Shown here in pieces: positions 1-46,154 of a stretch of DNA of 64,000 nt. The stretch is from a virus (lineage: Duplodnaviria > Heunggongvirae > Uroviricota > Caudoviricetes): IMG/VR virus record IMGVR_UViG_3300037087_000772, positions 1-64,000 of that record, one strand, 5' to 3'. The notes below the pieces were generated by a model, which saw only the letters and a list, made by a program, of their open reading frames with translations, made no database searches and was not told where the DNA came from. Both the position numbers and the translations under genes were made by a program. The first letter of the stretch is position 1; each line of letters begins with the position of its first letter.

Positions 1-414
1 ATTGTAATGGACATAACAATTGAACAACTTCAAAAAGATACCGAATTAACCCTTGAATTCATATATTCAGTAAGAATAGTTGAATCCTTATCTAAGGTAA
101 ATCTCAAAACTGATTGTGATAAACAAGAAGCTATAAAAATGTTGGAAAGAACATTTTTGGAATACAAAGAGAAACTGAATAAGTAAAACAATCTTTCTGT
201 TTTTTCCTATAATGATATTATGAGTGAAAGGGAATCAAATATTTCAATTCTTTATGATGGAAAATTTTTTGATAACGAAGAAGAATTTCAAAATTATACA
301 AGAAAAGAAAAATTAGATAATATTTTAAGATAATAAAGAACTCCCAGAAAATAAAGGTATTTGGGTAAATAATTCTATTGTTAGAATTACAAAAGTTCCA
401 GAATATGATATAAC

Positions 415-624
415 ATGACAGAAGAAGATAAAATAAACGATTCATTTCTTTTCACGAAGAAAAAGAAGTTTTTTATGGTATTTTATAAAGGGATTACATT
501 CACCGATGAAGAATCACTTTTAAATTTTGAAAGAAAAGAAAAGTTAGATAATATCTTGGATGATAAAGAATTGAAAGATGGATACCAATATAATTTTGAA
601 TTTCCAGATAATTTAGATTTATGA
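415..624 (+). CDS. small hypothetical protein ending in the conserved RKEKLDNILDD peptide; member of the small-paralogue family
   Basis: ORF track. The C-terminal peptide FERKEKLDNILDD is shared with ORFs at 1719..1937 and 29479..30985. A degenerate copy of the same ~60-nt segment lies at 258..330 (…YTRKEKLDNILR*). Confidence 0.35.
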   Translation: MTEEDKINDSFLFTKKKKFFMVFYKGITFTDEESLLNFERKEKLDNILDDKELKDGYQYNFEFPDNLDL

Positions 625-1709
625 TAGATGAATTATACATATCTAAATCGTTTTGTTGTATAGGTCGAAATACTAAGAATTGTTTGGGTTGTGCCTTTTG
701 TAGAGTATCCCAGAATAATACTGAATTCGAATATTCATGTCTACCATCCAAAATCAATAAAAATTTCATCAATCTACCCATTTCAATTAATTTATTTTAT
801 GGTGATCCATTGATTCAAAGAGACAAAACACTAAAGTATTTACATAAATTAGAAAAAGAAAATCATAAAGGTCCGGTTGTTATAATTACAAAGGGTGAAT
901 TATTAGATTTCGATTTACCGAATGATATCAATCTTGATTTACATTTGGCTTTTTCAACTTTTGGTATTGATCATGAGTTTGATAGATATTCAAACAAACG
1001 ATTATCATATAATTTACGAGTAGCAAATTTTAGAAAATATAAATATCATAAATCCATTGAATTTAGGCCAATTTGTTATGGAATAAACGATTCATTTGAA
1101 ACTATTAAAAATGTATTCAGTATTGCTAAAGATTTTAATATTGCAATTGGTTATTCTGGATTACAAGGTATTCCTGAGGTAGTAAAATATTGGGAAGAAA
1201 GCAATATAGATTTGAAACCATATCCCGGATTTAAATTTGGACATAAGAAATCAATTTCTAATGATGTTCAACAGATATTTGATGAGTTATCAGATTTATA
1301 CAATATTCCAATATTTAGAAAAACATCCTGTTTAATATCTTATACACACGATTTAGAAAGAGATTACAATGCTCATTATTATCGTCCCACTGAAATGAAT
1401 TGTGAAAAATGTGTGATGAAAGATAAATGTTTTGGTTTTAAAAATAATCAACCAACTGATATTAAACATTTGATTCCTTTTGATTTTGAAATTAAGATGA
1501 AAACTAATCATGAATGTATCTTAAAGAAAAAAGGTATATGTGAATTTCCATCGGATGATTGTTCAAGAATTTCAGGAAATATTTTAGTTATCAAGGAAAA
1601 ATTGACAACTGCGGATGTCAGAGTTATTAAATGGTTAACAGGATTTACAGTGGATGCTGATTTTTATGAAAGTTCATTATTGAATGATAAATGGAGAATG
1701 AAAAAATAA
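621..1709 (+). CDS. hypothetical protein with an N-terminal Cys cluster (CC-x7-C-x2-C-x2-C); possible Fe-S or Zn protein
   Basis: 362-aa ORF. Cys cluster CCIGRNTKNCLGCAFC near the N-terminus and a second cluster CEKCVMKDKC. Not a canonical CxxxCxxC radical-SAM motif. Confidence 0.45.
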   Translation: MIDELYISKSFCCIGRNTKNCLGCAFCRVSQNNTEFEYSCLPSKINKNFINLPISINLFYGDPLIQRDKTLKYLHKLEKENHKGPVVIITKGELLDFDLPNDINLDLHLAFSTFGIDHEFDRYSNKRLSYNLRVANFRKYKYHKSIEFRPICYGINDSFETIKNVFSIAKDFNIAIGYSGLQGIPEVVKYWEESNIDLKPYPGFKFGHKKSISNDVQQIFDELSDLYNIPIFRKTSCLISYTHDLERDYNAHYYRPTEMNCEKCVMKDKCFGFKNNQPTDIKHLIPFDFEIKMKTNHECILKKKGICEFPSDDCSRISGNILVIKEKLTTADVRVIKWLTGFTVDADFYESSLLNDKWRMKK

Positions 1710-1718
1710 AATAGAAAT

Positions 1719-1937
1719 ATGAAAGAAGAAATAGAAAATTCGATTGAAAAAGAATGGGAAGAAATAACTCGAATCAGAGAAGAAAAAATAGTTCATCCTG
1801 ACGGTACATGCAGTGGTAGTATTGGTTATGGTGGTGTAACTGGTAGTGATGGAAAAGAAATGAAGATTGAAGATTTCGTTAATCATAAAAGGTCAGAAAG
1901 ACTTGATGAAATATTAGATACAGAAAAAGATGATTGA
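1719..1937 (+). CDS. small hypothetical protein, family member with C-terminal RSERLDEILD peptide
   Basis: 72-aa ORF overlapping the next ORF start. C-terminus HKRSERLDEILDTEKDD matches the family motif. Confidence 0.35.
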   Translation: MKEEIENSIEKEWEEITRIREEKIVHPDGTCSGSIGYGGVTGSDGKEMKIEDFVNHKRSERLDEILDTEKDD

Positions 1938-2154
1938 AAAATGCGATGAATTAACTGGTGTATTTAATATTCCAATATATAAAGATCAATATGCTGAGAA
2001 GAATACTTTTCTCATTGGTAGACAAACTGGAGGTAAAGCCAATTTTATAGTAATGAACTCTGAAACTTGTGACCAAATGGTTGAGTTATGGAACGAACAG
2101 TTTATTAATGATGAAAGATTTAAAAAATTAAAAGAAATTTTAGAAGAATTATGA
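1930..2154 (+). CDS. small hypothetical protein
   Basis: 74-aa ORF; its start overlaps the previous stop (ATGA coupling). Confidence 0.3.
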   Translation: MIEKCDELTGVFNIPIYKDQYAEKNTFLIGRQTGGKANFIVMNSETCDQMVELWNEQFINDERFKKLKEILEEL

Positions 2155-2468
2155 CAACACAAATAAATCAAACACGAGAAGAACATTTAAAGATTATCGA
2201 AAAAAATAACAATGTAAAGGGGGTCGGTGTACTTCTTTTCGATAATTCATTTACTATTGATGATAAATATTTACATAAACAAATTGAAGGTCAATCTTTT
2301 ACTAAGTATATCATTCCAGATATTAACTATCAAGATATTATTGATATGGGTGAAAAATCAATCTGTTTTAAATTCATTCCATATAATGTAACAATAAAAA
2401 TAGGTGGTGTTGAATATGAATTTAATTCATATAATGATATTCCGAAAGATCAATGGTTTTGTAGATAA
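2151..2468 (+). CDS. hypothetical protein
   Basis: 105-aa ORF overlapping the previous stop. Confidence 0.35.
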   Translation: MTTQINQTREEHLKIIEKNNNVKGVGVLLFDNSFTIDDKYLHKQIEGQSFTKYIIPDINYQDIIDMGEKSICFKFIPYNVTIKIGGVEYEFNSYNDIPKDQWFCR

Positions 2469-2488
2469 TTTTTTAATTCAAAAAAATT

Positions 2489-2512
2489 TGTTAACTTCGT
2501 AAGTTAACCTAA
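2489..2512 (+). promoter_or_regulatory. inverted repeat GTTAACTTcgtAAGTTAAC plus TATAAAT box upstream of pth2
   Basis: TTGTTAACTTCGTAAGTTAACC then TAAATATAAAT; shares AACTTCGTAA…TAAATATAAAT with 13247..13270. Confidence 0.3.
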
Positions 2513-2524
2513 ATATAAATTTTT

Positions 2525-2941
2525 ATGGAAAAACCGAAACAAGTAATTGTTATGAGGAAAGACCTCAATATGAGAAAAGGTAAAATGGTATCTCAGGGCG
2601 CTCATGCCTCTTTTAAAGCCTTTTTGGATTTATGTGAAAAAGAAAACAGAATAAATTTGGAAACTGGTGAATGGAAGATGATTATCTTTCGATATAGAGG
2701 GGATGGTCCTTGGGATCAATGGTTGAATGGTATATTCACAAAAGTTGTTGTTAGTTGTGATAGTGAATCAGAATTACTTGATTTATATCAAAAATCCAAA
2801 GATAAAGGATTACCTTGTTCTTTGATTACGGACTCTGGTCTGACCGAATTTGATGGTGTTCCAACGAATACTTGTATTGCAATAGGGCCATCTTATCCAG
2901 AAACAATAGATGAAATAACAGGACATTTGAAATTATTATGA
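2525..2941 (+). CDS. pth2: peptidyl-tRNA hydrolase, PTH2 family
   Basis: 138 aa. Motifs KxVxVMRKDLNMxKGKMxSQGAHAS, LITDSGLTEFDGVPTNTCIAIGP and the C-terminal ITGHLKLL are characteristic of the PTH2 (archaeal/eukaryotic-type) family. Confidence 0.7.
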   Translation: MEKPKQVIVMRKDLNMRKGKMVSQGAHASFKAFLDLCEKENRINLETGEWKMIIFRYRGDGPWDQWLNGIFTKVVVSCDSESELLDLYQKSKDKGLPCSLITDSGLTEFDGVPTNTCIAIGPSYPETIDEITGHLKLL

Positions 2942-3321
2942 AAAACATCGAAGTTGATTTAAAATTCTATGCCGTCAGAAGTAAAGACGGAAAATGGCTG
3001 AGGACTAAGGGATATAGTGGTAGTGGAGATAGTTGGGTAGATGATATAAAGAAAGCTAAGATATATCCAAGGATAGGCCCTGCAAGAAGTCAAGTTACTT
3101 GGTGGTCGAATAATTATCCTGATTATGGTATTCCAGAACTGATAGAATTACATTGTACCAATGGTATCATTCTGGAAGAAAAGGAAAGGGTTCAAAAGGC
3201 CATTGAAAAAAAGAAACAGGATATAATCAATGCCGAGATAAGTCATAGAGAATGGGAAATAGAACAAGCCCAAAACCAATTGAAAAAAGCTCAGAAAAAA
3301 TTGAAGGAATTGAAAAAATGA
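2938..3321 (+). CDS. hypothetical protein with C-terminal coiled coil
   Basis: 127-aa ORF; KAIEKKKQDIINAEISHREWEIEQAQNQLKKAQKKLKELKK. Confidence 0.4.
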   Translation: MKNIEVDLKFYAVRSKDGKWLRTKGYSGSGDSWVDDIKKAKIYPRIGPARSQVTWWSNNYPDYGIPELIELHCTNGIILEEKERVQKAIEKKKQDIINAEISHREWEIEQAQNQLKKAQKKLKELKK

Positions 3322-3776
3322 TACGAAAATCGGGGAAAAATATAACCACAACCGAAAGTGAAGAAGAATTAGAATTAAATCAATTTATCAATAACTTTCT
3401 TTCAAGGGATATACCATTCAAAGATAAAATTTTGGATTCTTTTCTGAGTGATAAATTAGATCCCCAGAGTAAAATTATAATTCGAGGATATGATAAGAAA
3501 AATGATAGAATTTTACATGAACAATCGGATAATATCGGTGAAGTAGAAACATCGAGTAAATTTTTAGGATGTCGTTTCAGAAAAGTAAAATTACAAATTA
3601 GATTAGAAACAATCGATGATATCAATAATCTAATTAAATTTTTAGAATATATAAGGCCGTGTTTAGGTGAGGATTCAGATGAACAGAATATCAATGAAAA
3701 CAGAAAAAGAACACTAAAAAAGATATTAAATGAACCAGATAACTTTCCAAAAATTAATTGGAACGGGGGATATTGA
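3252..3776 (+). CDS. hypothetical protein
   Basis: 174-aa ORF; its start overlaps the upstream gene (true start may be internal). Confidence 0.35.
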   Translation: MGNRTSPKPIEKSSEKIEGIEKMIRKSGKNITTTESEEELELNQFINNFLSRDIPFKDKILDSFLSDKLDPQSKIIIRGYDKKNDRILHEQSDNIGEVETSSKFLGCRFRKVKLQIRLETIDDINNLIKFLEYIRPCLGEDSDEQNINENRKRTLKKILNEPDNFPKINWNGGY

Positions 3777-4653
3777 TTATTTTTTAGAATGATGATTGTG
3801 TGGTTCAACATGAATAGTCACATCAGTAAAGGGTTGAACCTTTTTTATTTTTTCTTCTAAATCATCAGATATTTCATGTGCCTCAACCAATGTAATACAT
3901 CCAACATGAATGGTGACATCAACATAGTAGATATGTCCAGATTGTCTTATTTTAAATCCATGATAACATTTAATATCATCTCCATAATTCTTTATGACAT
4001 CTTCAATATCTTTAGCTACATCAAAGGGTACTTTATCAAGTAAAGAATCTACGGCTTTTCTTCCAAGTCGGTATGATACATGAATAACAATCAATGCGAC
4101 AAACAAAGCGGCAACGGAGTCAGCATAGAACAACCATCTCATACCAACCAACTTACCTATCGTCACACATATCAAACCGAAAAGAACAACCGATGAACTC
4201 CATATGTCTGTTGAAAAATGAATGGCGTCGGCTTCCAATGCTGGACTGTTGTATTTTTTAGCTGTCCTATGAAGTTTACGGGATCTCCAAAGATGTTATG
4301 ACGATGATATAACTGAATACACTTATCTTTATATCAACATTTCCATTGATTAATCGGTGAATAGATTCCCAACAAATCCAGAAACAGGTTATAAACAGAA
4401 GGAATGTTTCAATTAGGGCTGAAAAATTTTCAATCTTACCATGTCCATAATGATGATCCTTATCGGCCTCTTTAACTGACGCCTTGACAGCATATAAGGT
4501 AATCAAAGCGGCGACTAAATCCAATCCCGAATGGAGTGCCTCGGATAAAATACCCAAACTGTTTGTCCAAGTTCCTATCCCCAATTTAAATGTGGTTAGA
4601 AAAATGGCCGCAAATACAGAAATGAGAGCTACTTTTCGTTTCTCGTGTTTCAT
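3777..4653 (-). pseudogene. cation diffusion facilitator (CDF/CzcD-like) metal efflux transporter split into two ORFs by a frameshift
   Basis: ORF 4276..4653(-) encodes the TM1-4 part of a CDF protein (HSGLDLVAALITL…HHYGHGKIE). ORF 3777..4238(-) encodes TM5-6 plus the cytoplasmic C-terminal domain (FYADSVAALFVALIV…HVEPH). Together they make one CDF protein interrupted around 4238..4276. Confidence 0.5.
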
Positions 4654-8224: not shown

Positions 8225-8358
8225 AATATTGATATATTATTTTCTATTATGTATATATTAAAACAATTTTTAAAACTTTTTTCGGCTTCCGATGATATAA
8301 TATTCAACCAGTAAGCCGAAAATGGTGAAAAGAGTAGGCAATTTTAATACACAAATTA

Positions 8359-26675: not shown

Positions 26676-27149
26676 ATGACAGAAAATGATATTTTAGCAC
26701 TAAGTTGGAAACAACCATTTGCTAGTCTGATGTTATGTGGGAAAATTGAAACCAGAGTATGGAAAACTAAATACAGGGGTGAAGTATTGATATGTGCTTC
26801 TAAGAAGTCATATTCATTAAAGGAATTAAATGATATTTGTGGACAGTATCAATTGTATAGAATATTTGACACTTTACATTGTGATCTTGGTTGTGTAGAT
26901 GATCTTTGTGGATTGGCTATAGCCATTGGAAGATTAGTTGATTGTAGACCAATGCAAAAAACAGATGAAGATAATTGTTTCGCTTTATACAATCCTGATT
27001 TGTGGTGCCATGTTTATGAGGATGTTAGAGAAATAAAACCATTTCCATTCAGGGGAAAACAAGGTTGGTCTAAATTGGATAAGACAACTTTTGACAAAAT
27101 TGAGTATATAAATTATGAAAAGGATCTAAGAGAATGGCTAAAGAAATAA
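26676..27149 (+). CDS. ASCH domain protein
   Basis: 157 aa; LSWKQPFASLMLCGKIETRVWKTKYRGEVLICAS matches the ASCH N-terminal signature. Confidence 0.5.
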   Translation: MTENDILALSWKQPFASLMLCGKIETRVWKTKYRGEVLICASKKSYSLKELNDICGQYQLYRIFDTLHCDLGCVDDLCGLAIAIGRLVDCRPMQKTDEDNCFALYNPDLWCHVYEDVREIKPFPFRGKQGWSKLDKTTFDKIEYINYEKDLREWLKK

Positions 27150-27511
27150 CAATTAAAGAACTTATTGAGATTTTACAACATCATTTAAGTATGTTGAAAG
27201 AAGAATCTACACTTTTTGATGTAGGTACTACTATTGGAATATCTACAAGTCTTTCACTTCAAGATGTGAATGGTTGGAGAAAAGAAGATTTGGAATGGGG
27301 TATAAAGTATGGATTGGGTTGGAAAGATGGTACAAGTGATCAAGTCATAAAAGATTATGAACTTCATAAAAAAGCTAGTTCACTGTCAAGATCTGTTCAT
27401 GATCTTATTGGGTTAGAAAAGGATTTAAAGAATCTTGAAGATGAAGAAAAAAGAATAAGGGCTATTGAATCGATTGAGGATAATTCTCATGATGATATTC
27501 CCTTTCTTTAA
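27134..27511 (+). CDS. hypothetical protein
   Basis: 125-aa ORF. Confidence 0.35.
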   Translation: MAKEITIKELIEILQHHLSMLKEESTLFDVGTTIGISTSLSLQDVNGWRKEDLEWGIKYGLGWKDGTSDQVIKDYELHKKASSLSRSVHDLIGLEKDLKNLEDEEKRIRAIESIEDNSHDDIPFL

Positions 27512-27513
27512 GA

Positions 27514-27987
27514 ATGACATACAAAATTATATTTTTGGATTTTGATGGTGTGTTAATTCCAGCCAGTGCCAAGGGATTCAATATGAGAAATATTGACAAT
27601 CTCAATGAACTTATTCGTAAAACGGGGGCTAAAATAGTTGTAACCTCAGATTGGAAAAGAAAACACGATGTTACAAAAATTTTATATGATAATGGTGTTA
27701 AAGGTGAAATACTTGGAATCACTCCGAATTTTTCGATTAAAGAAGATGAAACCATTAAAGTTCCCAAAGGATTAGAAATTAAAGAATGGTTAAATAAGTT
27801 TAATTCATTCGATGGTGAAAATGAACTAAAATATGTTACGAATTATGTTATCTTAGATGACCATCATATTGATATGTTAGTTGAACAAATAGACAATATG
27901 GTGGAAATAGATCAGACTAAAGGATTCGATGGTAAAGCTCTGAAAGACGCTATATCCATATTAATAAGAGATGAAATAATTATTTAA
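27514..27987 (+). CDS. HAD-superfamily hydrolase/phosphatase-like protein
   Basis: 157 aa; IIFLDFDGVL is HAD motif I (DxDG[TV]L); VVTSDW. Confidence 0.45.
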   Translation: MTYKIIFLDFDGVLIPASAKGFNMRNIDNLNELIRKTGAKIVVTSDWKRKHDVTKILYDNGVKGEILGITPNFSIKEDETIKVPKGLEIKEWLNKFNSFDGENELKYVTNYVILDDHHIDMLVEQIDNMVEIDQTKGFDGKALKDAISILIRDEIII

Positions 27988-28005
27988 AAAAGAAATACTA
28001 CACGG

Positions 28006-28890
28006 ATGGAATGGGATGCAATAAAATGGGCACAAACCTATAAAACTTCAAATCTTAACAGAAGAAAAGAACTTTTGATTGATGTTTGGGAAAACACGAT
28101 TAAAATCGTTAAGAATGGAAAATACTTCTCGGATGGAGAAGTTATCATTGACAACTCGAAAGTGTGCCAGAACTCTTTATTTACTGAAAATGGCCCAATT
28201 TATGACCCAACGGGGATAAATGACTTTAAAACTGAAATATTGGTCATGGATGCTGATTGTTTGGATGTAGCAAGAACGATGGAAAATCCGATAGTTTTAA
28301 ATATGGCCAGTTATAAGAATCCCGGTGGTGGTGTAATAAATGGTTCATCGGCACAGGAAGAAAATTTATTCAGAAGAACCAATTTATTTAAATCTCTTTA
28401 TCAATATGTTGATTATGCTCATCAGTATGGAATAGAACAAAATTCTAAATACAAATATCCATTGGGTGATTATGGTGCAATCTATTCAAAAGATATAACC
28501 GTTTTTCGTGGTTCTGAAAAAAATGGATATTATTTACTCTCCCATCCATTCAAATGTGCTTTTATATCTGTACCTGCAATAAAAAGACCAGAATTGAAGA
28601 ATAGAAGAATGAATGAAAATGACTTCTCCAAAACCAAACAAAAAATAAGAAGGATTTTTCAATTCGCTCATGAGAATGGACATAGAGATTTAGTTCTTTC
28701 CGCTTTTGGTTGTGGTGCTTATGGAAATCCACCCGAACAGATAGCTTCAATCTTTAAAGAATTATTAGATACTGAATATAAAGGGGTTTTTCATAAGATA
28801 GTATTCGCTATCTATGATGATCATAACTCATATAAAGAACACAATCCAGATGGAAATTTAAAACCATTCAAGAAAATATTTAATATATAA
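28006..28890 (+). CDS. bacterial-type poly(ADP-ribose) glycohydrolase-like macrodomain protein (DUF2263/PARG)
   Basis: 294 aa; LNMASYKNPGGGVINGSSAQEENLFRR carries the PARG signature GGG-X7-QEE; C-terminal LVLSAFGCGAYGNPPE. Confidence 0.7.
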   Translation: MEWDAIKWAQTYKTSNLNRRKELLIDVWENTIKIVKNGKYFSDGEVIIDNSKVCQNSLFTENGPIYDPTGINDFKTEILVMDADCLDVARTMENPIVLNMASYKNPGGGVINGSSAQEENLFRRTNLFKSLYQYVDYAHQYGIEQNSKYKYPLGDYGAIYSKDITVFRGSEKNGYYLLSHPFKCAFISVPAIKRPELKNRRMNENDFSKTKQKIRRIFQFAHENGHRDLVLSAFGCGAYGNPPEQIASIFKELLDTEYKGVFHKIVFAIYDDHNSYKEHNPDGNLKPFKKIFNI

Positions 28891-28897
28891 TCACATT

Positions 28898-29482
28898 ATG
28901 ACAAATTTATACATTGATGAATTGGATTTCGAAGATGATGAAAATATCAAAATTATTGATTTTCCAATAACAAGACAAGCCTATTCATATACTTGTGGTT
29001 GTGATATAGTAGAAAGAACAATGGAATTTTATGGTGAAAATTTTCGTGAATCTGATTTAGTTGAAATTTTGAAAACTAACGAAGAAGAAGGAACACTTGT
29101 AAAAAACATAGTGAAATTTTTTCATTATCATGATCTAAAGACTGAATTACAACAAGATATGACAATTGATGATCTGATTAAATATGTGGATAAGAACATT
29201 CCAGTAATTGTTTTGATACAAGCTTGGGGAACTGATTTTAAATTCAAAAGAAAATATAAAGAAACTTGGGGAGATGGACATTTTGTGGCTGTAATTGGAT
29301 ACACAGATAAACTTTTATTAATTAGTGATCCGTCTTTATTTAATGTCGGATATATACCAAAATCTGAATTTATGAACAGATGGCATGACATTGATGATGG
29401 ACTTGAAACATATCAACTCGGATTGGCTGTTTTTGGAAGAAAAGCAATATTTGATAAAGATAAGTTAGAAAGAGTCAGATGA
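28898..29482 (+). CDS. papain-like cysteine peptidase, C39-like domain
   Basis: 194 aa; ITRQAYSYTCGCDIVERTM supplies the Gln and Cys nucleophile; WGDGHFVAVIGYTDKLLLISDP supplies the His, as in Peptidase_C39_2. Confidence 0.45.
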   Translation: MTNLYIDELDFEDDENIKIIDFPITRQAYSYTCGCDIVERTMEFYGENFRESDLVEILKTNEEEGTLVKNIVKFFHYHDLKTELQQDMTIDDLIKYVDKNIPVIVLIQAWGTDFKFKRKYKETWGDGHFVAVIGYTDKLLLISDPSLFNVGYIPKSEFMNRWHDIDDGLETYQLGLAVFGRKAIFDKDKLERVR

Positions 29483-29676
29483 TTTCAAAAGAATTTTGGA
29501 CAGAGATCGAAAAAGAACTTAACGATGCTTATCACAATCCTCAGTTAATAGAAAAAAATGACATTAATACTTTTACTGATTCAATAGTATCAAGAATTAT
29601 CAATGAAGATAGGTCAGATAAACTTCAAATCATTTTAGATGAAAAGGATGATAAAAAAACCCAATTTGATAAATAG
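29479..29676 (+). CDS. small-paralogue family member (C-terminal SDKLQIILDE)
   Basis: 65-aa ORF overlapping its neighbours. Confidence 0.35.
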   Translation: MISKEFWTEIEKELNDAYHNPQLIEKNDINTFTDSIVSRIINEDRSDKLQIILDEKDDKKTQFDK

Positions 29677-29914
29677 TATACATAGACTAAGACGAATAAA
29701 TAAAGAATATTATAAGAATATGTATAATCTAAATTGGGACTTATGGGATGATTGTATAAAAGGAAAAAATCGTCCTGATCTTTTAAGTTCAAATTTAATA
29801 AAAAATAATTTTACAATATTTGATTGGGATTTAGATGATTATTTTGTTATGTCAGAAGCAATAACAAAAAACAAAGACAGATCAAATACACTTAAAACTA
29901 TTTTAGATGAATGA
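29639..29914 (+). CDS. small-paralogue family member (C-terminal RSNTLKTILDE)
   Basis: 91-aa ORF. Confidence 0.35.
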   Translation: MKRMIKKPNLINSIHRLRRINKEYYKNMYNLNWDLWDDCIKGKNRPDLLSSNLIKNNFTIFDWDLDDYFVMSEAITKNKDRSNTLKTILDE

Positions 29915-30242
29915 AAATGAATTTAATTGGGATAATTTCTGGAAAGAATATCATGATTTTGAATTGGATAAAAGAAAATCCGAATCTATTGAGACAGGTT
30001 TAAGTTTTTTAGATAATTTATTTAAGAAAGGAATATCCAAGAATAAAATAACTATTATAACTGGAAAATCCGAATATAATTATAATTATTTATCAGAATT
30101 CGTGGATTTATATAATTCAAGACAAAATAATACATTTAAAGTGTTTTTTGGAAATGACACAGATATATTAGAAGCCAGATTAATAAATTACATAAGATCT
30201 GAAAAACTCAATGATATTTTGAATGATGGATTTCCTGGATAA
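29907..30242 (+). CDS. small-paralogue family member (FLDNLF…YIRSEKLNDILND)
   Basis: 111-aa ORF. Confidence 0.4.
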   Translation: MNENEFNWDNFWKEYHDFELDKRKSESIETGLSFLDNLFKKGISKNKITIITGKSEYNYNYLSEFVDLYNSRQNNTFKVFFGNDTDILEARLINYIRSEKLNDILNDGFPG

Positions 30243-30594
30243 ATTTTTGATCGGAAAATCTGAATCTATGATTCAGGATGTTAATAATATTAGAAATGAT
30301 ATTATTGAGATTGATGATGAAACCTTAGAATTTTTAAATGAAGAGAATCAAAGATATTCTCGTGAAATGGATTTTGACTATATCCCACCACCTTATAAAC
30401 CACTATTCGGAGAAACGATTTTAGGAATTAGACTATGGCACGAACATTCTTGTGAATTATTTACAACTGAGTTTAATCTGGAAAATATTAATGTTAGTGG
30501 ATTAGCAACTCGTGTTTTTCGTGGAATTGATTTAGTTGCAAAACTACAAAATCATATTAGATACAAAAAATTAGAAAAAATATTAAATGATTGA
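30223..30594 (+). CDS. small-paralogue family member (FLDKFLIGKS…IRYKKLEKILND)
   Basis: 123 aa; clear paralogue of 30587..30985. Confidence 0.45.
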   Translation: MMDFLDKFLIGKSESMIQDVNNIRNDIIEIDDETLEFLNEENQRYSREMDFDYIPPPYKPLFGETILGIRLWHEHSCELFTTEFNLENINVSGLATRVFRGIDLVAKLQNHIRYKKLEKILND

Positions 30595-30985
30595 TATGAA
30601 TTTTTTAGATAAATTTTTGATTGGGAAATCGGTTGAACCAGATATTAAAAATCATATTTGGTGTAATTTATTTGAAACCAATGAAAAAGATATTGATGGA
30701 ATTTTGGAATTTTTATCTCAAGAAAATAAAAAATATTGTGAAGAAATGAATTGGGATTCATGGAAATTTAATTATAGAAAACCAAAATTCGGGGAAACAA
30801 TAATCGGAATTGGAACAAAAAGTGCAGCTGGTACTGAAATGTATAATTCTTGTTATATAATTACAACTGACTTTATGAATAGACCAGATGGATTCGTATC
30901 TCATTGTTATTCGGGTCATGAAATATCAGAAAAAATACAAAATTTCATTAGATCTCAAAAATTAAAATCGTTGTTAAATGATTGA
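30587..30985 (+). CDS. small-paralogue family member (FLDKFLIGKS…IRSQKLKSLLND)
   Basis: 132 aa; the stop overlaps the MTase start (ATGATTGA). Confidence 0.45.
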   Translation: MIDMNFLDKFLIGKSVEPDIKNHIWCNLFETNEKDIDGILEFLSQENKKYCEEMNWDSWKFNYRKPKFGETIIGIGTKSAAGTEMYNSCYIITTDFMNRPDGFVSHCYSGHEISEKIQNFIRSQKLKSLLND

Positions 30986-31712
30986 TATAAATAAAATATA
31001 TTTCGATAATTGTTTACATCTAATGCCTGATATTGATACTCATATTGTTGATATGATTCTTGCTGATTTACCATACGGAGTCACAAGAAACAAGAAAGAT
31101 ATTATGATCCCATTTGAATTACTCTGGAAGAACTACAATCGAATTATAAAACCGAATGGATGTATTGCTTTATTCGCTCAGGGAATGTTCGCTCACAAAC
31201 TTGCTTTATCTAATGAGAAAATGTATCGTTATGATTTGATATGGAAAAAAGGAGAAAGGGTCACTGGATTTTTAAATGCAAAAAAACAAATACTTAGAAA
31301 CCATGAGCAAATTTTGATTTTCTATAAAAAACAACCAACTTACCATCCACAATTTACAGAGGGGACACCTCAGCATTCAAAAGGTAACGCTTTTTCTTTC
31401 AAAGAAGGAAAAAATCAAAATTATGGTTATTTTGATTCGAAAATTCCAGATATAAGAAAAGGAACTACACAAAAATATCCGAAAAGTGTTTTAAACTTCG
31501 AAAAACCTTGGCCACCTGTACATAGAACCCAAAAACCAGTAAAATTGTGTGAATGGTTAATATTGACCTTTACGAATCCCGGAGAATTAGTACTGGATAA
31601 CACTTGTGGTATTGGAACAACCTGTATAGCAGCTAAGAATACAGGAAGAAATTTCATAGGAATTGAAAATGATGAAGAATTTTATAATATGGATTATTAT
31701 CATTTGTTATGA
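30978..31712 (+). CDS. DNA methyltransferase, N6-adenine/N4-cytosine family (beta class: motif IV before motif I)
   Basis: 244 aa; ILADLPYG is a motif IV variant of DPPY; C-terminal LVLDNTCGIGTTCIAAKNTGRNFIGIENDEEF is the motif I FxGxG region typical of the N6_N4_Mtase family. Confidence 0.7.
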   Translation: MIDINKIYFDNCLHLMPDIDTHIVDMILADLPYGVTRNKKDIMIPFELLWKNYNRIIKPNGCIALFAQGMFAHKLALSNEKMYRYDLIWKKGERVTGFLNAKKQILRNHEQILIFYKKQPTYHPQFTEGTPQHSKGNAFSFKEGKNQNYGYFDSKIPDIRKGTTQKYPKSVLNFEKPWPPVHRTQKPVKLCEWLILTFTNPGELVLDNTCGIGTTCIAAKNTGRNFIGIENDEEFYNMDYYHLL

Positions 31713-32216
31713 ATAAATATTAGAATCATCTATATCCCAACTTCCATCATTTTTAATATTCTTAATATAATTCGGGTAAAACATAATAAAATCTTTTCTA
31801 ATTACATCAATATCAGTATTGGACTTTTCAATAATTATACCATCATAATTTAACAATATCTTATTCTTTATATTAATTATCTCACTCTTCCATTCCTTAA
31901 CATCATTCATATAATCAAACCAAGTTTCATAAATCTTTGGATTTTCTATTTTCAAATAAACTTTTAAAATTTTCGGATTTAATTTATTGTGTGTAAAAAC
32001 TTTAGCAACCTTTAATGATTCAGTAAACCAACACCCTTTACTACAATCAAATATTTTATCAATAGTTGATTTATAATATTCACCTGTTCCGTGATAAGCA
32101 ATTAATGGATGATTATTTTCATCTACGACTTTACTTTCATCAAACCATTTATAAAAATTAGGATTTAAATTTTTATATTCTTCAAACATTTTTAGATATT
32201 TCATAGAATTTACCAT
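31707..32216 (-). CDS. hypothetical protein
   Basis: 169-aa ORF. Confidence 0.4.
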   Translation of the reverse strand: MVNSMKYLKMFEEYKNLNPNFYKWFDESKVVDENNHPLIAYHGTGEYYKSTIDKIFDCSKGCWFTESLKVAKVFTHNKLNPKILKVYLKIENPKIYETWFDYMNDVKEWKSEIINIKNKILLNYDGIIIEKSNTDIDVIRKDFIMFYPNYIKNIKNDGSWDIDDSNIYS

Positions 32217-33530
32217 CTTTTAGTATTAGATATCTTAAAATCTTTTATTCTATTTAAATTTTCTTCGGTTGGCATAGGATCTACATTGAATTTCTTCTTA
32301 AATTCACGCCTCGATATTCCCCAACTTTCATATCCTTTCGAATCTAAATTATTAAATACGATTCCACCACTTGTATTACTTCTCCAAACATACTGAGATT
32401 CTATTCTTATTCCATCTAATTCATAGTTGGCCTTTTTATCATCATGATCGAAGAATTGAACCGATAATGGACTATTTGCTCCGATCCAATAATCGCCATC
32501 CACAATTTCTATATCATCTATGGTAAATTTGTAATTTACTGGAATTTCTATGATATATTCTTTTTCTTTTTTACCAGAAACATAATCTACTTCTCCAAAA
32601 AATTCTTCTGTCTTTGGTGAAGTGACTATTTTTACCTTAGTCGGATCAACTCTCAAAATAATACCCTCTTTATTTGCGAAATAAGCAGCTATATCCCTTG
32701 ATTCGGTAAAAGATAAGAATTTTCCATCCGATATTTTTGACATTCCTTTCTCAACGATAAATTGAATCAAATTATCAATGAAAGTTTTGACCCAAGTAGT
32801 ATGTTTATCATCAATCCCTTTAGCTTGTTCTTGTGATACTTTTCTTAATTGTTCAATTTCTTTACCTTTTAATCCTTGGAATACCCTTATTCCCCTATAT
32901 AAATTCTTTGGAAGTTTCGGTTTATCTTTTTTTATTTTATAATGGTGATAGAAGGAATATAACCAAACATATTGAACTATGTTATTAACTTTCTTAATTG
33001 ATAAATTATTTGTTATCGTATAGGCTGGAATACCATCAAAATCAACCCATCTTTTCACGACATCCTTGTGGAGATCAAAATCATATTTAGTACTTTTAGG
33101 GTTTGTATTTTTAATTTTTTCAAGATCCGTAAATCTATTTAAAAATCTAAGTCCATTTGTAGAATTCACATCACCAAACACATTTCTACTTTCTAATCCA
33201 CCAGAGGCAACAATTAACATAGCTGTTTGTTGTCTGAGATCTTTAAAAATGCTAGCTCCCTCCTTTGGAATTTTTTGTCCTATCTGAGCGACAGTATGTA
33301 ATAAAGATTTACTAACTGAATCCTTCCAATTAAGAATCATATTCTCTCTGATTTGAGTATATTTATTAAAGTCCATTCCCATCAAATTAACGAGTTCTTC
33401 TTCAGTATTAAAACCAGTTTTTATGGAATTTTTTAACTTTTCCTTAAATTCTGACCAATCAGTAAATTTTATCGAATCATTGAATTGACCATATCTTTCA
33501 TTCAAAAATTCTGAGAATGAATACAACATA
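32210..33530 (-). CDS. hypothetical protein; candidate R-S-E class mono-ADP-ribosyltransferase (Alt-like?)
   Basis: The ORF track extends to 33919, but a TTAATATATA promoter motif at 33547..33556 lies 16 nt upstream of the internal ATG at 33530 (MLYSFSEF…). Ordered motifs NLYRGIRV (Arg), FLSFTESRDIA (S-T-S-like) and KKEKEYIIEIP (ExE followed by hydrophobics) have the spacing seen in ADP-ribosyltransferases. Confidence 0.4.
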
Positions 33531-41763: not shown

Positions 41764-43593
41764 TTAGATTAAGTAACCATGTGTATCAGTAACTTTAATA
41801 CTCATGTATTGTTTTTCTGGGAAGAAACCGATATCAGATACTGCGTATCTTGAACGGATTAACATTCTTGGTGCCCATGTTGCTTCACTGATTAAACTGA
41901 TAGACTGTGCCATCAAATAAGGAATGAAAACAAGACCCGGCTGGTCAATTGTGTTCTTTCTTCCTACGAAGATTTGATTGTCATCCCATCTCATGTAAGG
42001 ATCTACATAAATTTGGATGTTACCGATGTTACCCATTGGGTATAACTGACCGTTGGTGTTTAATTTACCAACATTGGTTGGGTTAAGTGTGTAACCAGCG
42101 ATATCTTGTAATACGGAAGCGATGTTACCGTTTGTTACTAAATATTGAGCTGGTCCAATTCTACCATCAGTAGCGATGAAGTTAGAAGCGTTGTTGATCT
42201 TGGCAACTAACTTTCTTTGAATTGTGTGGGTTGTTTCACCACCCGGTGCGTAACCAGTTGCTGACAAGTAGGTATCAACATTGAAGTCAAATTTACTTGT
42301 TCCGTCTGCGTTCTTTGGACAGGTGTTTGAAATTCTGTTCTTAGCTGCCAAACTTCTGATCTTAGCTACGATTTCTTTTGAAATAACCTGAGTTAATTCA
42401 TTGATAAGAACACCTTCCAATTTCTGAACGATGTCCATTCCAGTAGCGGCTTTAATATCCTCAATTTGAGTTCTCTTTAAAGCTGAACTGATTTCGATGT
42501 CACCAACGGTAACAACTTTTGTGAATACGTCAGGACCAATAACACCCGGATAGGTCTTTTCATCCTGATATCTGTTCATTGCACCACCACCGTTTGACTT
42601 GTAGTTATCTCTGTCTGCGGCTGCTTGAGCTGACCATGCATCTTCGAAACCATTTTGTCCTGCTGAAAATCCCGGTAATTGATCTTCCAATAAGGAAACC
42701 AATGTGATTGTGGCACCAGTGATATAACTTGTCCAAGTTGGAACAACTGATGTAGTTGTACCTGAAGCGTAGACGAAACCACCGATTAAAGTAGTTGTCA
42801 TGGCTGTAGTTTGGTCAAATGTATTCTTAGCTGCTGTCCAAGCTGAACCATCTTGTGGTAATACTGGACCAACTGAGAAACCAGCTTGACGATAACATCT
42901 GAAAATTGGTAATCCATCAATTCTGGAGAATCCTAAGAATTCCAACCAGTTTACTTTTGATGCTGTTCCCGGACCACTTATTAAGGTTTTACCACTACCA
43001 CCAAAGGTTGTGTCACTACCTAAATAAACCCAAGTTCTCTTATCAATTCCACCAATTCTTTCTTGAATCTGATAAACACCTAATTGCCATTTCAAATCAG
43101 CGATGATAGCTGCTGTAATAGTAGCTGCTGTTGCACCACCACCTTGTAATTTGAAAACCAATGGTCTTTGTTCAGCTTCTTGATCTTCACGAGATCCATC
43201 ACCATAAGCATTATCGTATTTGAAATCTACGAATAACAACTCAATTCTTGGAGAAGCGGTTGGTTTTACAGCTACTAAATCTAAACCGATTGTTTGAGCT
43301 GCGATCTTCATTGATACTGGAAGTAAATTCTGTGCAACATCACCACTACCGATGTTACCAGCACCTGCTTGCCATACTGAAGATGGGATAGTTCCAACTG
43401 TTGGAGCTAAAATGTTACCCATACCGTTTTGGTTAAGGTTGACATATGCCACGTTTTCATTGATATGAAGCTGGTGCATTTCAGCGTATTCGGCCATCCA
43501 TTCTCTTTTTTCTTCGTCCTTTACTTTTAAGGCTTCGAGGATTGGTGTCCATTTCTTTAAAGCTTTTGCTTTGTCTACTATAAAGTGTGTCAT
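41764..43593 (-). CDS. major capsid protein, T4 gp23-like
   Basis: 609 aa. Position in the portal–protease/scaffold–MCP order; N-terminal propeptide-like region; overall resemblance to gp23, including the C-terminal segment (…PYLMAQSISLISEATWAPRMLIRSRYAV…). TATAAATA-like motif about 25 nt upstream of the ATG; strong terminator downstream. Confidence 0.75.
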   Translation of the reverse strand: MTHFIVDKAKALKKWTPILEALKVKDEEKREWMAEYAEMHQLHINENVAYVNLNQNGMGNILAPTVGTIPSSVWQAGAGNIGSGDVAQNLLPVSMKIAAQTIGLDLVAVKPTASPRIELLFVDFKYDNAYGDGSREDQEAEQRPLVFKLQGGGATAATITAAIIADLKWQLGVYQIQERIGGIDKRTWVYLGSDTTFGGSGKTLISGPGTASKVNWLEFLGFSRIDGLPIFRCYRQAGFSVGPVLPQDGSAWTAAKNTFDQTTAMTTTLIGGFVYASGTTTSVVPTWTSYITGATITLVSLLEDQLPGFSAGQNGFEDAWSAQAAADRDNYKSNGGGAMNRYQDEKTYPGVIGPDVFTKVVTVGDIEISSALKRTQIEDIKAATGMDIVQKLEGVLINELTQVISKEIVAKIRSLAAKNRISNTCPKNADGTSKFDFNVDTYLSATGYAPGGETTHTIQRKLVAKINNASNFIATDGRIGPAQYLVTNGNIASVLQDIAGYTLNPTNVGKLNTNGQLYPMGNIGNIQIYVDPYMRWDDNQIFVGRKNTIDQPGLVFIPYLMAQSISLISEATWAPRMLIRSRYAVSDIGFFPEKQYMSIKVTDTHGYLI

Positions 43594-43697: not shown

Positions 43698-46154
43698 TTA
43701 GTATCTGTTAAGAACATTTTTCATATGCTCAACTTGTTCATCAGAAAGTGAATAATTATCGTATGTATTTATGTTTTCATTCAATACTTTCTTTCCTGTG
43801 TTAGCTTGTGCATATTGTAGAAGATCTCTGGTTAACCAGAATGATTCTACTTTTTTCTCCGTAGTTAAGTCAGTATAGAATTGTGCTGTATCTAAAATAC
43901 TTTCTTGTACTTTCGGATTTAATTTTTCCCAAATTGGCTGTAAGTCACTTGGAATATTTTCAACCAATGTTTCATTTAATGATCTGGTTGGTTTGAACAA
44001 TGCTTTCTGCATTAATATAAGAACATCACTTTCGTTTGAATAATTTCCCTTGTTTTCGTTCATGACAAAGTTTACTTTTTCCTTATCTTCTGGAGTTAAA
44101 CCATAATAAGCGGCTTTCTTCTTTTCAGGTAAGAATAATAAGAAGTGAGGATCTTCTGTCTTAGCGGCTTCGCGTTTTTTAGCGGCTTCGATGAGTTTCT
44201 TTATGTCTTTTGTTATCTGATTCGTATTTTCGTAAATTTTGGTTGTACCTAAAATTGTAAGTCTACTTTCTTCGACTTCAACTTCTTCGCCAGTATCTCC
44301 CATTTTTACAACTACAATTTTTGTAGTATCATCTGTTGCGAGAACTTCACCTGTACGAGTTGGTTCTTCAGTAGCTCCTTCAGTACCTTCTGGTTGTGCT
44401 GTTTCTTCATCTTTATCTCCCTTAACAGTAACAATCATACCCGGAGTAATACCTAAACCTGTTTCTTCTTGTGGTGGAACTTCCTCAGTATTTACACCTT
44501 CAGCATCCTGAGCTGGTGTTTCTTCTACTGGTGGTGTTTCACCTTGTACTGGTGCTTCCTGAGCTGGTTTTTCTTCAGCTGGAGGTGTTTCCTGAGCCGG
44601 TTCTTCAACCTTAGGTTCTTCTGTTGCACCATCTGCTGGTTTTTCTTCTGGTTTATCTTCATAATAATTTGAAGGATCATCAGTTGTCATATCACCAATG
44701 GCTTCAGTAACACCTAATTTCTCAACAACTCTCTTTGTGTAGTCAATGTGTCTATCAATGACTTCTGCTTCATATTTTTGATAAGCGATAGAATCGGTAA
44801 GATTTTCAGCCAACATTTCTGAATAACGGATACCGTTATCAGTTTGTTCTGCTACATATTCACCATATCTGATAGCGTTATCTACATGCTCGGCGATGTA
44901 TTGAGTATAATCAACAATCTTTTCTGCACTTTCACTGATGTAATCGGCGTAATCAACAAGATTGTCAACCGTTTCGGCTACATATTCAGCGTACATAATG
45001 TTCTTATCGAGATGTTCTGCGATATAATCAGCGTAATCAGCTATCTTATCAAAGTTTTCAGCGATGTATTCACTATATTTAATAGTGTTTTCAGTCTGTT
45101 CAGCTACATATTCGATAAAACTAATACCGTTATCTAACTTTTCAGCGATGTATTTTTGATAATCAATAACTTGGTCGGTTGTACCTGCTAAATAATCAAT
45201 ATAACCAATTGTTTTTTCGACTGCTTCTGCGATGTGGTCGTTGTGTTCGATAATGAGTTTTGTTTTTTCTTTGTTTTTCTCAACTCTTTCTTCCAGTTTG
45301 TCGTTTGTTTTCTTCAACTGTTTGTTTTCTTGAACTAAAACATTAATCGCGTCTGCTATCTGATCAAGATATTCGGCCATTCTTTTTTGACCCTCGGATA
45401 ATGTTTCGAATTCTTCATAAAGGCGAGAGAGTTTTTCCGGATCGAAATTCTTTGAATTAAGAGTTTCTTCAATGGAATTTTTTGTTTTCAATAACTCACT
45501 GTCTAAATAGGATTTGAACTCTTCCAATTTTGTCTGAGTTCCAATTTCGTTTTTTTCCATATTGAACAATTCATTTATTTTTGACTCCTCAGATATATCG
45601 AATATCCTGAAGTTTAAATTTTCATTGAATCCCAATGATTCATTCATGTTTTTCAATTCCATTCGGGCTGAACTAAATCCGGGGTCTGCAACACAATCAT
45701 AGGTGAATAACTTTTTAATTGTTACTTCACCATTCGATTCTGTTACACCGGCAGCTCTACTGGAAACGAAAATAGGTAGGTCATCATCTACAAGAGCTTG
45801 TGCTTCCTTTCCATAAAAGGTATTAGTTAATTTAATTTCTCCATCAACTCTATTGGTTTCCTTTATAAACCAAGCATTTTGAATTGTATGAGAAATACGA
45901 GTTAAGCTAGTATCAAATACATCTGGATGATCAAACTCTCCATAGACAACTTTTAACAGTTTTTTTCTTTCTAATAATTCACTAAGATGGGGTAAGAATT
46001 TCTCTGCGGTGTAAATCCTGTCATTTCTATTTCTAATATTGAATTCTGTAAAAATACCCTTCATGATATATAGGATATTACCCTTACTACTTACGACCTC
46101 ATTGATTTTCTCCAGACCACCCAATGTATTATCAATTATTATTACATTTTTCAT
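43698..46154 (-). CDS. prohead core protease (T4 gp21/S77-like N-terminal domain) fused to a repeat-rich acidic scaffold (gp22-like) region
   Basis: 818 aa. N-terminal …YIMKGIFTEFNIRNRNDRIYTAEKF… resembles the prohead protease family. The central ~180 aa has about 10-12 tandem 14-aa repeats (xYxEYVAExxDxxI). It is followed by a Pro/Glu/Thr-rich acidic linker and a C-terminal domain. Confidence 0.6.
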   Translation of the reverse strand: MKNVIIIDNTLGGLEKINEVVSSKGNILYIMKGIFTEFNIRNRNDRIYTAEKFLPHLSELLERKKLLKVVYGEFDHPDVFDTSLTRISHTIQNAWFIKETNRVDGEIKLTNTFYGKEAQALVDDDLPIFVSSRAAGVTESNGEVTIKKLFTYDCVADPGFSSARMELKNMNESLGFNENLNFRIFDISEESKINELFNMEKNEIGTQTKLEEFKSYLDSELLKTKNSIEETLNSKNFDPEKLSRLYEEFETLSEGQKRMAEYLDQIADAINVLVQENKQLKKTNDKLEERVEKNKEKTKLIIEHNDHIAEAVEKTIGYIDYLAGTTDQVIDYQKYIAEKLDNGISFIEYVAEQTENTIKYSEYIAENFDKIADYADYIAEHLDKNIMYAEYVAETVDNLVDYADYISESAEKIVDYTQYIAEHVDNAIRYGEYVAEQTDNGIRYSEMLAENLTDSIAYQKYEAEVIDRHIDYTKRVVEKLGVTEAIGDMTTDDPSNYYEDKPEEKPADGATEEPKVEEPAQETPPAEEKPAQEAPVQGETPPVEETPAQDAEGVNTEEVPPQEETGLGITPGMIVTVKGDKDEETAQPEGTEGATEEPTRTGEVLATDDTTKIVVVKMGDTGEEVEVEESRLTILGTTKIYENTNQITKDIKKLIEAAKKREAAKTEDPHFLLFLPEKKKAAYYGLTPEDKEKVNFVMNENKGNYSNESDVLILMQKALFKPTRSLNETLVENIPSDLQPIWEKLNPKVQESILDTAQFYTDLTTEKKVESFWLTRDLLQYAQANTGKKVLNENINTYDNYSLSDEQVEHMKNVLNRY

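Follow-up and report, generated by a model that had tools for sequence, protein, structure and literature searches.

In the 64,000-nucleotide window analyzed here, i.e., positions 1 to 64,000 of the caudoviricete record IMGVR_UViG_3300037087_000772, two groups of small genes encode proteins that share a short, predicted helical motif. A first-pass annotation of the sequence had described it as a peptide common to the ends of five consecutive, overlapping open reading frames (ORFs). Using a six-frame motif scan, we found ten strong copies, five in each of two clusters (cluster 1, positions 220-3776; cluster 2, positions 29479-30985), all of them on the + strand, in frame and inside ORFs. The interpretation that we favor, with moderate confidence, is that the motif is an autonomous docking or capping helix of diversified soluble accessory proteins, which would make up a lineage-restricted, expanded family.

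Aligned on an invariant Arg, the ten window copies define the full motif as h-x-N-x-x-R-x-x-K-L-x-x-I-L-[ND]-[DE]. An invariant Asn is found three residues N-terminal of the Arg, and thus the motif is longer than the peptide first noted. As the annotation had proposed, a hidden Markov model (HMM) was built from the aligned copies. The copies themselves scored 24-32 bits, values that are training-set scores, whereas the best hits in 20 shuffled windows scored 5.3-10.5 bits; with the same ten-copy HMM, independent motif copies in relatives reached 18-21 bits. Over 35 module instances, the N, the R and the last L are present in all 35, the first L in 34 and the I in 31.

The five ORFs of cluster 2 are as follows.

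29479-29676, + strand: ORF1, 65 amino acids (aa); motif at 29587-29643 (VSRIINEDRSDKLQIILDE), 10 residues before the stop; 29.5 bits
29639-29914, + strand: ORF2, 91 aa; motif at 29855-29911 (EAITKNKDRSNTLKTILDE, then stop); 27.1 bits
29907-30242, + strand: ORF3, 111 aa; motif at 30171-30227 (EARLINYIRSEKLNDILND); 30.7 bits
30223-30594, + strand: ORF4, 123 aa; motif at 30535-30591 (VAKLQNHIRYKKLEKILND, then stop); 31.5 bits
30587-30985, + strand: ORF5, 132 aa; motif at 30926-30982 (SEKIQNFIRSQKLKSLLND, then stop); 29.4 bits

The coordinates of these overlapping ORFs were borne out, and all five were also called by the assemblies' independent gene caller. ORF4 and ORF5 are paralogous over their full length, as the annotation had claimed (41% identity, E 3e-23), and ORF3 is a more distant, rearranged paralogue of both. 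A "DnaB-like" PHROG match of ORF3 (E 3.5e-4) is probably spurious; the segment concerned, F-L-D-x-L-F-x-x-G-x-S-K, corresponds to the ORF4/5 N-terminus. The likelier starts of ORF4 and ORF5 are the second ATGs, at 30226 (122 aa) and 30596 (129 aa), which lead to matching N-termini, M-D/N-F-L-D-K-F. ORF2 has an alternative start at 29720, and the resulting 64-aa form is protein P0005. From the upstream peptidase gene through ORF1-5 to the downstream methyltransferase gene, successive overlaps measure 4, 38, 8, 20, 8 and 8 nucleotides. Thus, the overlaps that had been read as translational coupling are real, but with the second-ATG starts likely for ORF4 and ORF5, coupling is just plausible. ORF5 matched only itself among 5.8 billion proteins, and protein and IMG/VR searches returned no orthologue of ORF1-5 outside the source phage. 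Their coding status is therefore argued from paralogy, operon-like packing and the shared motif.

Cluster 1 contains the other five copies.

220-333, + strand: o220, 37 aa, hairpin plus helix only (protein P0004); motif at 277-330 (EEEFQNYTRKEKLDNILR, then stop); 31.2 bits
415-624, + strand: o415, 69 aa, member of a conserved subfamily of 60-70 aa; motif at 508-564
1719-1937, + strand: o1719, 72 aa; motif at 1866-1922; 31.7 bits
1930-2154, + strand: o1930, 74 aa, C-terminus RFKKLKEILEEL, then stop; motif at 2092-2148 (NEQFINDERFKKLKEILEE); 28.7 bits
3252-3776, + strand: o3252, 174 aa; motif at 3678-3734 (DEQNINENRKRTLKKILNE), 13 residues before the stop; 24.0 bits

The distant copies previously listed at 415-624 and 1719-1937 do exist, whereas the one placed at 258-330 belongs to the 37-aa ORF at 220-333, and o1930 and o3252 are two copies beyond that list. 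o3252 carries the variant RKRTLKKILNE; the gene caller starts it at 3318, which yields 152 aa, and its orthologue in a relative is L060 7665-7970. Orthologues of o415 in related phages are 75-79% identical. The 3' end of o415 overlaps the start of a radical-SAM-like gene at 621-1709.

The motif is conserved at the protein level, as the annotation had proposed, because third codon positions are the weakest (mean information of 1.02, 1.05 and 0.58 bits at positions 1, 2 and 3), the codons of the invariant Leu switch among CTT, CTC, CTA and TTA, and the copies are just 60-72% identical at the DNA level. The similarity is thus selected in the protein, and the copies form a real motif family. Comparison of o415 with its L058 orthologue gave a nonsynonymous rate (dN) of 0.13, a saturated synonymous rate (dS) of 1.55 and a dN/dS of about 0.08, which points to purifying selection on this gene. 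The region is identical in sequence across four independent samples, and polymorphism is therefore uninformative.

The same features bear on a contrary explanation, in which the motif would be a nucleotide element (a promoter, a cassette or a coupling signal) that is merely translated, or the ORFs would not be genes. T4-type phages do shuffle the genes of their variable regions by means of conserved promoter/stem-loop (PeSL) cassettes (PMC2839356, PMC4122927), and in cluster 2 the final two motif codons always hold the first ATG of the next ORF. However, the codons of the terminal [ND][DE] residues (AAT-GAT or GAT-GAA) yield an ATG automatically in an AT-rich genome. Unlike PeSL cassettes, the motif is repeated inside ORFs, with low DNA identity and with the third positions least conserved; every copy lies in frame on one strand, and the invariant Leu alternates between the CTN and TTA families. 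Moreover, the copies of cluster 1 and of relatives are 13-48 codons from the stop and away from start codons, Rfam gave no match in the cluster region, and the o415 subfamily shows the low dN/dS given above. With the frame conserved in all copies, the motif does not behave as the non-coding nucleotide repeat that the annotation had contemplated. We regard the nucleotide-element explanation as largely refuted by these comparisons, and as the least credible of those weighed in this work.

The conserved element is predicted to be an amphipathic helix of ~19 residues, E-E-x-h-x-N-x-x-R-x-E-K-L-x-x-I-L-[DN]-[DE], ahead of which many members have a beta-strand or hairpin (Y-x-G-x-x-F-x-S/T) devoid of metal ligands. 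Structure prediction of the shared domain, another proposal of the annotation, supported this view. The AlphaFold2 model of o415, computed from a shallow alignment of 13 sequences, shows a beta-hairpin at residues 22-29 and a helix at residues 32-48 (17 residues), with a predicted local distance difference test score (pLDDT) of 80-87 and disordered ends. The ORF5 model (pLDDT 56; alignment of 3 sequences) has a beta-strand followed by a C-terminal helix, residues 108-127, that corresponds to the motif. On a helical wheel of the 35 instances, E2, N6, R9, L13, I16 and L17 cluster in an arc of 60-160 degrees, so that hydrophobic and polar residues together make up a single conserved face of the modeled helix. 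The ten window proteins are hydrophilic (grand average of hydropathy of -0.4 to -1.2) and lack transmembrane-like hydrophobicity. The isoelectric point is 4.5-5.0 in 8 of 10 proteins; values of 5.6, 6.0 and 9.3 were obtained for ORF5, o3252 and ORF2, respectively. This hydrophilic and mostly acidic character speaks against a role in targeting to membranes or in simple binding of DNA.

The description of the motif as a terminal peptide needs qualification. The shared element is real, but it is not strictly terminal: its distance to the stop is 0-10 residues in cluster 2, 0-19 across the window and 0-48 in relatives, and a protein may hold up to three copies. Because the distance to the C-terminus varies, the C-terminal degron role that had been suggested is unlikely. 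The helix occurs twice in P0016 and P0023 and three times in P0034, and L061, a 2.3-kb contig, has four consecutive small ORFs with five motif copies. In L058, the module sits at the C-terminus of an enzyme: a 439-aa protein (L058 4108-5427) corresponds to window positions 621-1709 plus 1719-1937, with o1719 matching its C-terminal 60 residues. The two window genes represent a gene fission. The product of 621-1709 (362 aa) is Cys-rich and radical-SAM-like, with a C-x2-C-x2-C motif, but scores just 16.8 bits with Pfam Radical_SAM. Two IS605 OrfB/TnpB-like (Cas12f-like) genes, at L058 1249-2409 and 8236-9450, flank the region of the motif genes in that relative.

A third motif cluster belongs to the same phage, ~75-85 kb from the start of the window and outside it. 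It consists of five tandem paralogues of 111-125 aa (L068 13890-15632, - strand), each with the module at its C-terminus, and adjoins a gene for a DUF2201_N protein. Together, the ten window copies, the protein P0032, encoded at this third locus as well, and the five tandem paralogues amount to at least 16 motif copies per genome, in three clusters. The N-terminal parts are unrelated between subfamilies, with BLASTP matching the motif region alone. Taken together, these architectures show the helix to be a portable unit: it can stand by itself, follow a hairpin, recur within a protein, form part of an enzyme or make up a separate ORF.

The tandem paralogues of the third cluster also carry MORN-like hairpins of the form G-K-x-H-N-E-x-G-P-A. 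Similar hairpin repeats are present in L060 (174 aa), L038 (177 aa) and P0019, where the last hairpin, W-L-N-G-x-x-x-S-E-E-E-F, continues into the helix. This arrangement raises the alternative that the motif by itself serves no function, i.e., that the proteins are highly diverged homologues of one small fold composed of a beta-sheet and a capping helix, of which the helix is the slowest-evolving core. The origin of such a fold could possibly be the cap found at the C-terminus of the MORN-like proteins with hairpin repeats in this phage. It would agree with the paralogy of ORF3, ORF4 and ORF5 along their entire length, with the placement of the helix after beta-strands in the AlphaFold models of o415 and ORF5, and with the third cluster, L060 and L038, in which x-G-K-x-H-x-E-x-G-P-A repeats are followed by a last hairpin, W/Y-L-N-G-x-x-x-S-E-E-E-F, leading directly into the helix. 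In contrast, the helix-only or multi-copy proteins (P0016, P0023, P0034 and the L061 ORFs) indicate that the helix duplicates and persists without the hairpin, the N-terminal parts are unrelated from one subfamily to another, and polar Asn and Arg residues that are invariant in all 35 instances would be unusual for a mere packing helix. We consider this alternative a distinct but minority possibility.

By eye, the hairpin repeats resemble the MORN_2-type pattern, Y-x-N-G-x-x-H-R-x-x-G-P-A. Pfam MORN and MORN_2 models matched none of six repeat-bearing relatives (L068 ORFs, P0019, L060) at E values up to 5, the P0019, L060 and L038 proteins had no Pfam match at E up to 0.1, and L060 gave no match against the PDB. 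Most window members (ORF1-5, o1930, o3252) are devoid of MORN-like repeats.

The annotation called the family apparently undescribed, and our searches agree. Searches of all motif proteins against Pfam, PHROGs and NCBIfam gave nothing consistent, and there was no significant PDB match; structure searches likewise gave no significant match. When a profile was searched against 1.84 billion cluster representatives, just 27 matched at E up to 1e-3. Apart from one obvious false positive, a TPR protein, they are 30-221 aa long, and those annotated at the source are labelled "hypothetical protein" only. A scan of reference bacterial and archaeal genomes with the o415 family found no relatives, and a degenerate DNA pattern had 2 matches in reference genomes, both within unrelated large proteins and compatible with chance. 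Scans of IMG/VR revealed no relatives of ORF5, of the C39 peptidase or of the o415 family, a metagenome scan returned one locus that was already known, and 276 kb around the DNA polymerase genes of related phages contained no motif copy above chance. The family thus appears to be confined to one clade of huge T4-like phages.

The window (29.5% GC) has genes for a major capsid protein of the gp23 type, a portal of the gp20 type, an S77 prohead protease and a DNA polymerase of family B, and on this basis its source is assigned to a T4-like phage. That the phage is huge follows from the presence of the same proteins on metagenomic contigs of 230-292 kb and, once, 737 kb. The host is probably a member of the Bacteroidota, because the phage C39-like peptidase has standalone homologues with 50-60% identity in Bacteroidota assemblies and the start codons lack a purine-rich ribosome-binding site. 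Megablast of positions 27000-33000 against 50,697 phage records gave no matches.

Among described families, SHOCT (PF09851) is similar in several respects. SHOCT domains have ~30 residues with two predicted amphipathic helices and conserved Gly and Glu, occur in varied architectures and have been hypothesized to mediate oligomerization or binding (PMC3581485). Like them, the module is ~30 residues long, has no Cys or His, is mostly C-terminal (within ~50 residues of the end) and follows many unrelated N-terminal regions. However, it consists of a hairpin or strand and one helix with invariant N, R, L and L, and SHOCT is widespread in bacteria. The SHOCT Pfam model matched none of nine window proteins (E up to 1) or of 14 o415-type proteins (E up to 10). 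The best PDB match of the o415-type profile was FSD-EY (1fme), which aligned with ktilYkGivFtsEEellNfqR at a non-significant E value of 0.28. FSD-1 and FSD-EY are designed, zinc-finger-modeled peptides; the o415 module is also a hairpin plus a helix, but its helix is about twice as long. The match is compatible with the predicted topology, nothing more, and with a designed peptide indicates no homology. A classical zinc-finger beta-beta-alpha fold finds no counterpart either, as no Cys or His is conserved in the 35 instances. Resemblances noted by eye to the glutaredoxin C-terminus, Rho_N/SAP, the IQ motif, bZIP and clamp-binding peptides received no support from searches. By the tests run, the family appears to fall outside SHOCT, MORN_2, double-glycine leaders, the T4 targeting sequence and PeSL cassettes.

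We propose that duplication and shuffling distributed the helix over small, soluble proteins of accessory function and that the cluster 2 genes, which form an insertion of 1.5 kb at a variable locus, arose by tandem duplication. The conserved face of the helix (N, R, L, I, L) would be a docking surface, packed against the beta-sheet of the same protein or else in contact with a shared partner or a second member of the family. On this view, the helix would be a common handle and the proteins its diversified "payloads", with early host takeover or anti-defense as their most likely roles. Several points weigh against this proposal. Selection on ORF1-5 is deduced from paralogy, as these ORFs have no orthologues elsewhere; the AlphaFold support comes from shallow alignments (13 and 3 sequences), with a poor model for ORF5; the binding partner is a postulate; and the invariant Asn and Arg could be structural, through capping or hairpin bonding, in which case the motif would be the best-preserved piece of a fold.

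The small orphan genes of huge phages make up much of their genomes and cannot be grouped or studied by homology. Here, a single short portable helix links at least 16 orphan genes of one phage and further genes of related phages, and the 19-residue HMM provides a handle for classifying them. A partner of the N/R/L/I/L face, if found, may clarify the roles of the whole gene set. Should the helix be a packaging or docking signal, it could serve as a cargo-loading tag or as a tag to pull down a hub protein of the host or the phage; if it is a structural cap only, the family would represent an ordinary lineage-specific expansion of paralogues. Short shared modules are a familiar theme of phage multigene families, within which this helix family is new.

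Several motif proteins have a possible link to the capsid. P0034 contains three motif copies and shows homology to residues 13-103, in the N-terminal region, of the window capsid protein (encoded at 41764-43593, - strand; E 1e-11) and to small proteins in the portal-anchored loci of relatives. The 136-aa ORF that follows the motif cluster of L061 is of the P0034 type. P0032 (64 aa, L068 10001-10195), from the same phage as the window, combines a 40-residue fragment of capsid protein with the motif; it scores 31.5 bits with Pfam Gp23 (cut-off 24.4) and matches residues 460-498 of the window capsid protein (E 7e-7). o1930 is a diverged paralogue of P0032 (E 1e-8).

These possible links bear on another explanation, in which the helix would act as a signal for targeting to the capsid or for packaging, a counterpart at the C-terminus of the targeting sequence of T4 internal proteins. 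It would dock diverse small proteins on the scaffolding core so that they are encapsidated and injected. The motif ending, L-x-[ED], could then act as a prohead-protease site. The T4 prohead protease cleaves at L/I-x-E; 4 of the 10 window copies end in L-D-E, L-N-E or L-E-E, which resembles this site, and the others in L-[ND]-D, L-D-T or L-R. Also in favor are the T4-like nature of the phage, with its gp23 capsid protein, gp20 portal and S77 prohead protease, the presence of the motif in capsid-N-terminal homologues (P0034 and the L061 ORF), and the capsid-protein fragment joined to it in P0032 and, by paralogy, in o1930. However, the motif is C-terminal, so that cleavage after it would leave it in place, and the final residue is Asp, not Glu, in over half of the copies in the window. 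The phage's own scaffold, itself without a motif copy, has ~13 Y-[IV]-A-E repeats that are better candidates for protease sites. In addition, ~500 kb of head-module DNA from relatives contained no copy above 12.5 bits, and the motif clusters are surrounded by non-structural accessory genes. Packaging is thus possible on circumstantial support only, and we give it a small chance of being correct, although we retain it as the chief rival explanation.

The scaffold in question is encoded at 43698-46154 (- strand) as part of an 818-aa protein, in which an S77-type prohead protease is fused to a scaffold-like region made of ~13 diverged 11-residue repeats followed by a Pro/Glu-rich linker. The repeats center on Y-[IV]-A-E, and Y-I-A-E is reminiscent of the site cleaved by T4 gp21 as well as of the way in which the T4 targeting sequence ends; Tandem Repeats Finder did not detect the repeats in the DNA.

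In logic, the nearest known analogue is the T4 internal proteins. IPI, IPII, IPIII and their polymorphic relatives are encoded by clustered, diverse small genes and carry a capsid targeting sequence (PMC3012670). The motif genes are likewise clustered, diverse and small, lie in variable regions and share one short peptide. In contrast, the T4 signal is ~10 residues long, N-terminal and removed by gp21, while the motif is ~19 residues long and C-terminal or internal in every copy; the sequences of the two are not similar. A more specific scenario, to which we give a lesser chance still, is that a C-terminal capsid-loading helix docks the at least 16 small proteins, fragments derived from the capsid protein among them, on the scaffold or the capsid N-terminal region as an injected anti-defense arsenal. 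If true, the problem of targeting internal proteins, as T4 does, would have been solved a second time and independently in evolution.

Cluster 2 is bounded by the following genes.

28898-29482, + strand: standalone C39-like cysteine peptidase; its stop overlaps the start of ORF1
30978-31712, + strand: N6/N4 DNA methyltransferase; its ATG lies within the last two motif codons of ORF5

The Cys and His motifs of the peptidase are intact, and its position directly upstream of ORF1 suggests an explanation in which the motif would be a recognition or cleavage tag for this enzyme, i.e., a variant of the double-glycine leader, and the five ORFs its substrates. Double-glycine leaders have the consensus E-L-x-x-I-x-G-G; like them, the motif is an amphipathic helix next to a C39 gene, and its K-L-x-x-I-L-x-x spacing imitates the hydrophobic residues at -7 and -4 from the end. 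However, it ends in [ND][DE] with no GG, GA or GS and is C-terminal instead of N-terminal, with 0-10 residues beyond it in cluster 2 and thus nothing to release. C39 linkage is not conserved: there is no C39 gene near clusters 1 and 3 or in L061, a related phage has the C39 gene at this locus without any of the five ORFs, and C39 homologues (50-68% identity) are commonly standalone in Bacteroidota assemblies, where the neighborhoods examined have no motif. We therefore find this explanation very doubtful. An idea that the motif proteins are precursors of ribosomally synthesized and post-translationally modified peptides, linked to the radical-SAM-like enzyme of cluster 1, was also rejected: the enzyme is only weakly matched (16.8 bits), in most copies the motif is not followed by any residues, and in L058 that enzyme itself bears the motif.

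The locus has several forms. In the window, the order is PARG, C39, five motif ORFs, methyltransferase; in a related phage contig, PARG, a 66-aa gene, C39, methyltransferase; and in L038, PARG, a 106-aa gene, methyltransferase. As the forms differ between relatives, the five ORFs represent a 1.5-kb insertion or tandem expansion at a variable accessory locus. The annotation had pointed out that the cluster abuts a methyltransferase gene. This gene is indeed immediately downstream, but relatives have it without the five ORFs, and the adjacency of both the methyltransferase and the C39 peptidase is thus incidental. In L038, the 106-aa protein in the slot of C39 (10449-10769, - strand) has a metalloprotease-like H-E-L-V-H motif and is putatively a different protease. 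More broadly, positions 27514-32216 form an accessory block with HAD_SAK_2, microbial PARG, the C39-like peptidase and the methyltransferase, and with an ART-PolyVal ADP-ribosyltransferase on the opposite strand. By their family assignments, PARG, ART-PolyVal, HAD_SAK_2 and the methyltransferase would have typical accessory or anti-defense functions, and the block looks to be of ADP-ribosylation and RNA-repair style.

Elsewhere in the window, an Rfam DUF805b RNA motif is found at 8306-8340 (+ strand; 44 bits, gathering score 35.6), directly upstream of a 775-aa SPFH/Band_7 gene (8359-10686), and is a candidate bacterial cis-regulatory element in a phage genome. A cation-efflux (CDF) transporter gene is apparently split into two ORFs, 3777-4238 and 4276-4653 (- strand), with Cation_efflux and ZT_dimer matches. 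Finally, the phage has a gene at 62180-63991 (- strand) for a 603-aa hybrid sensor kinase with PAS, HisKA, HATPase_c and receiver domains.

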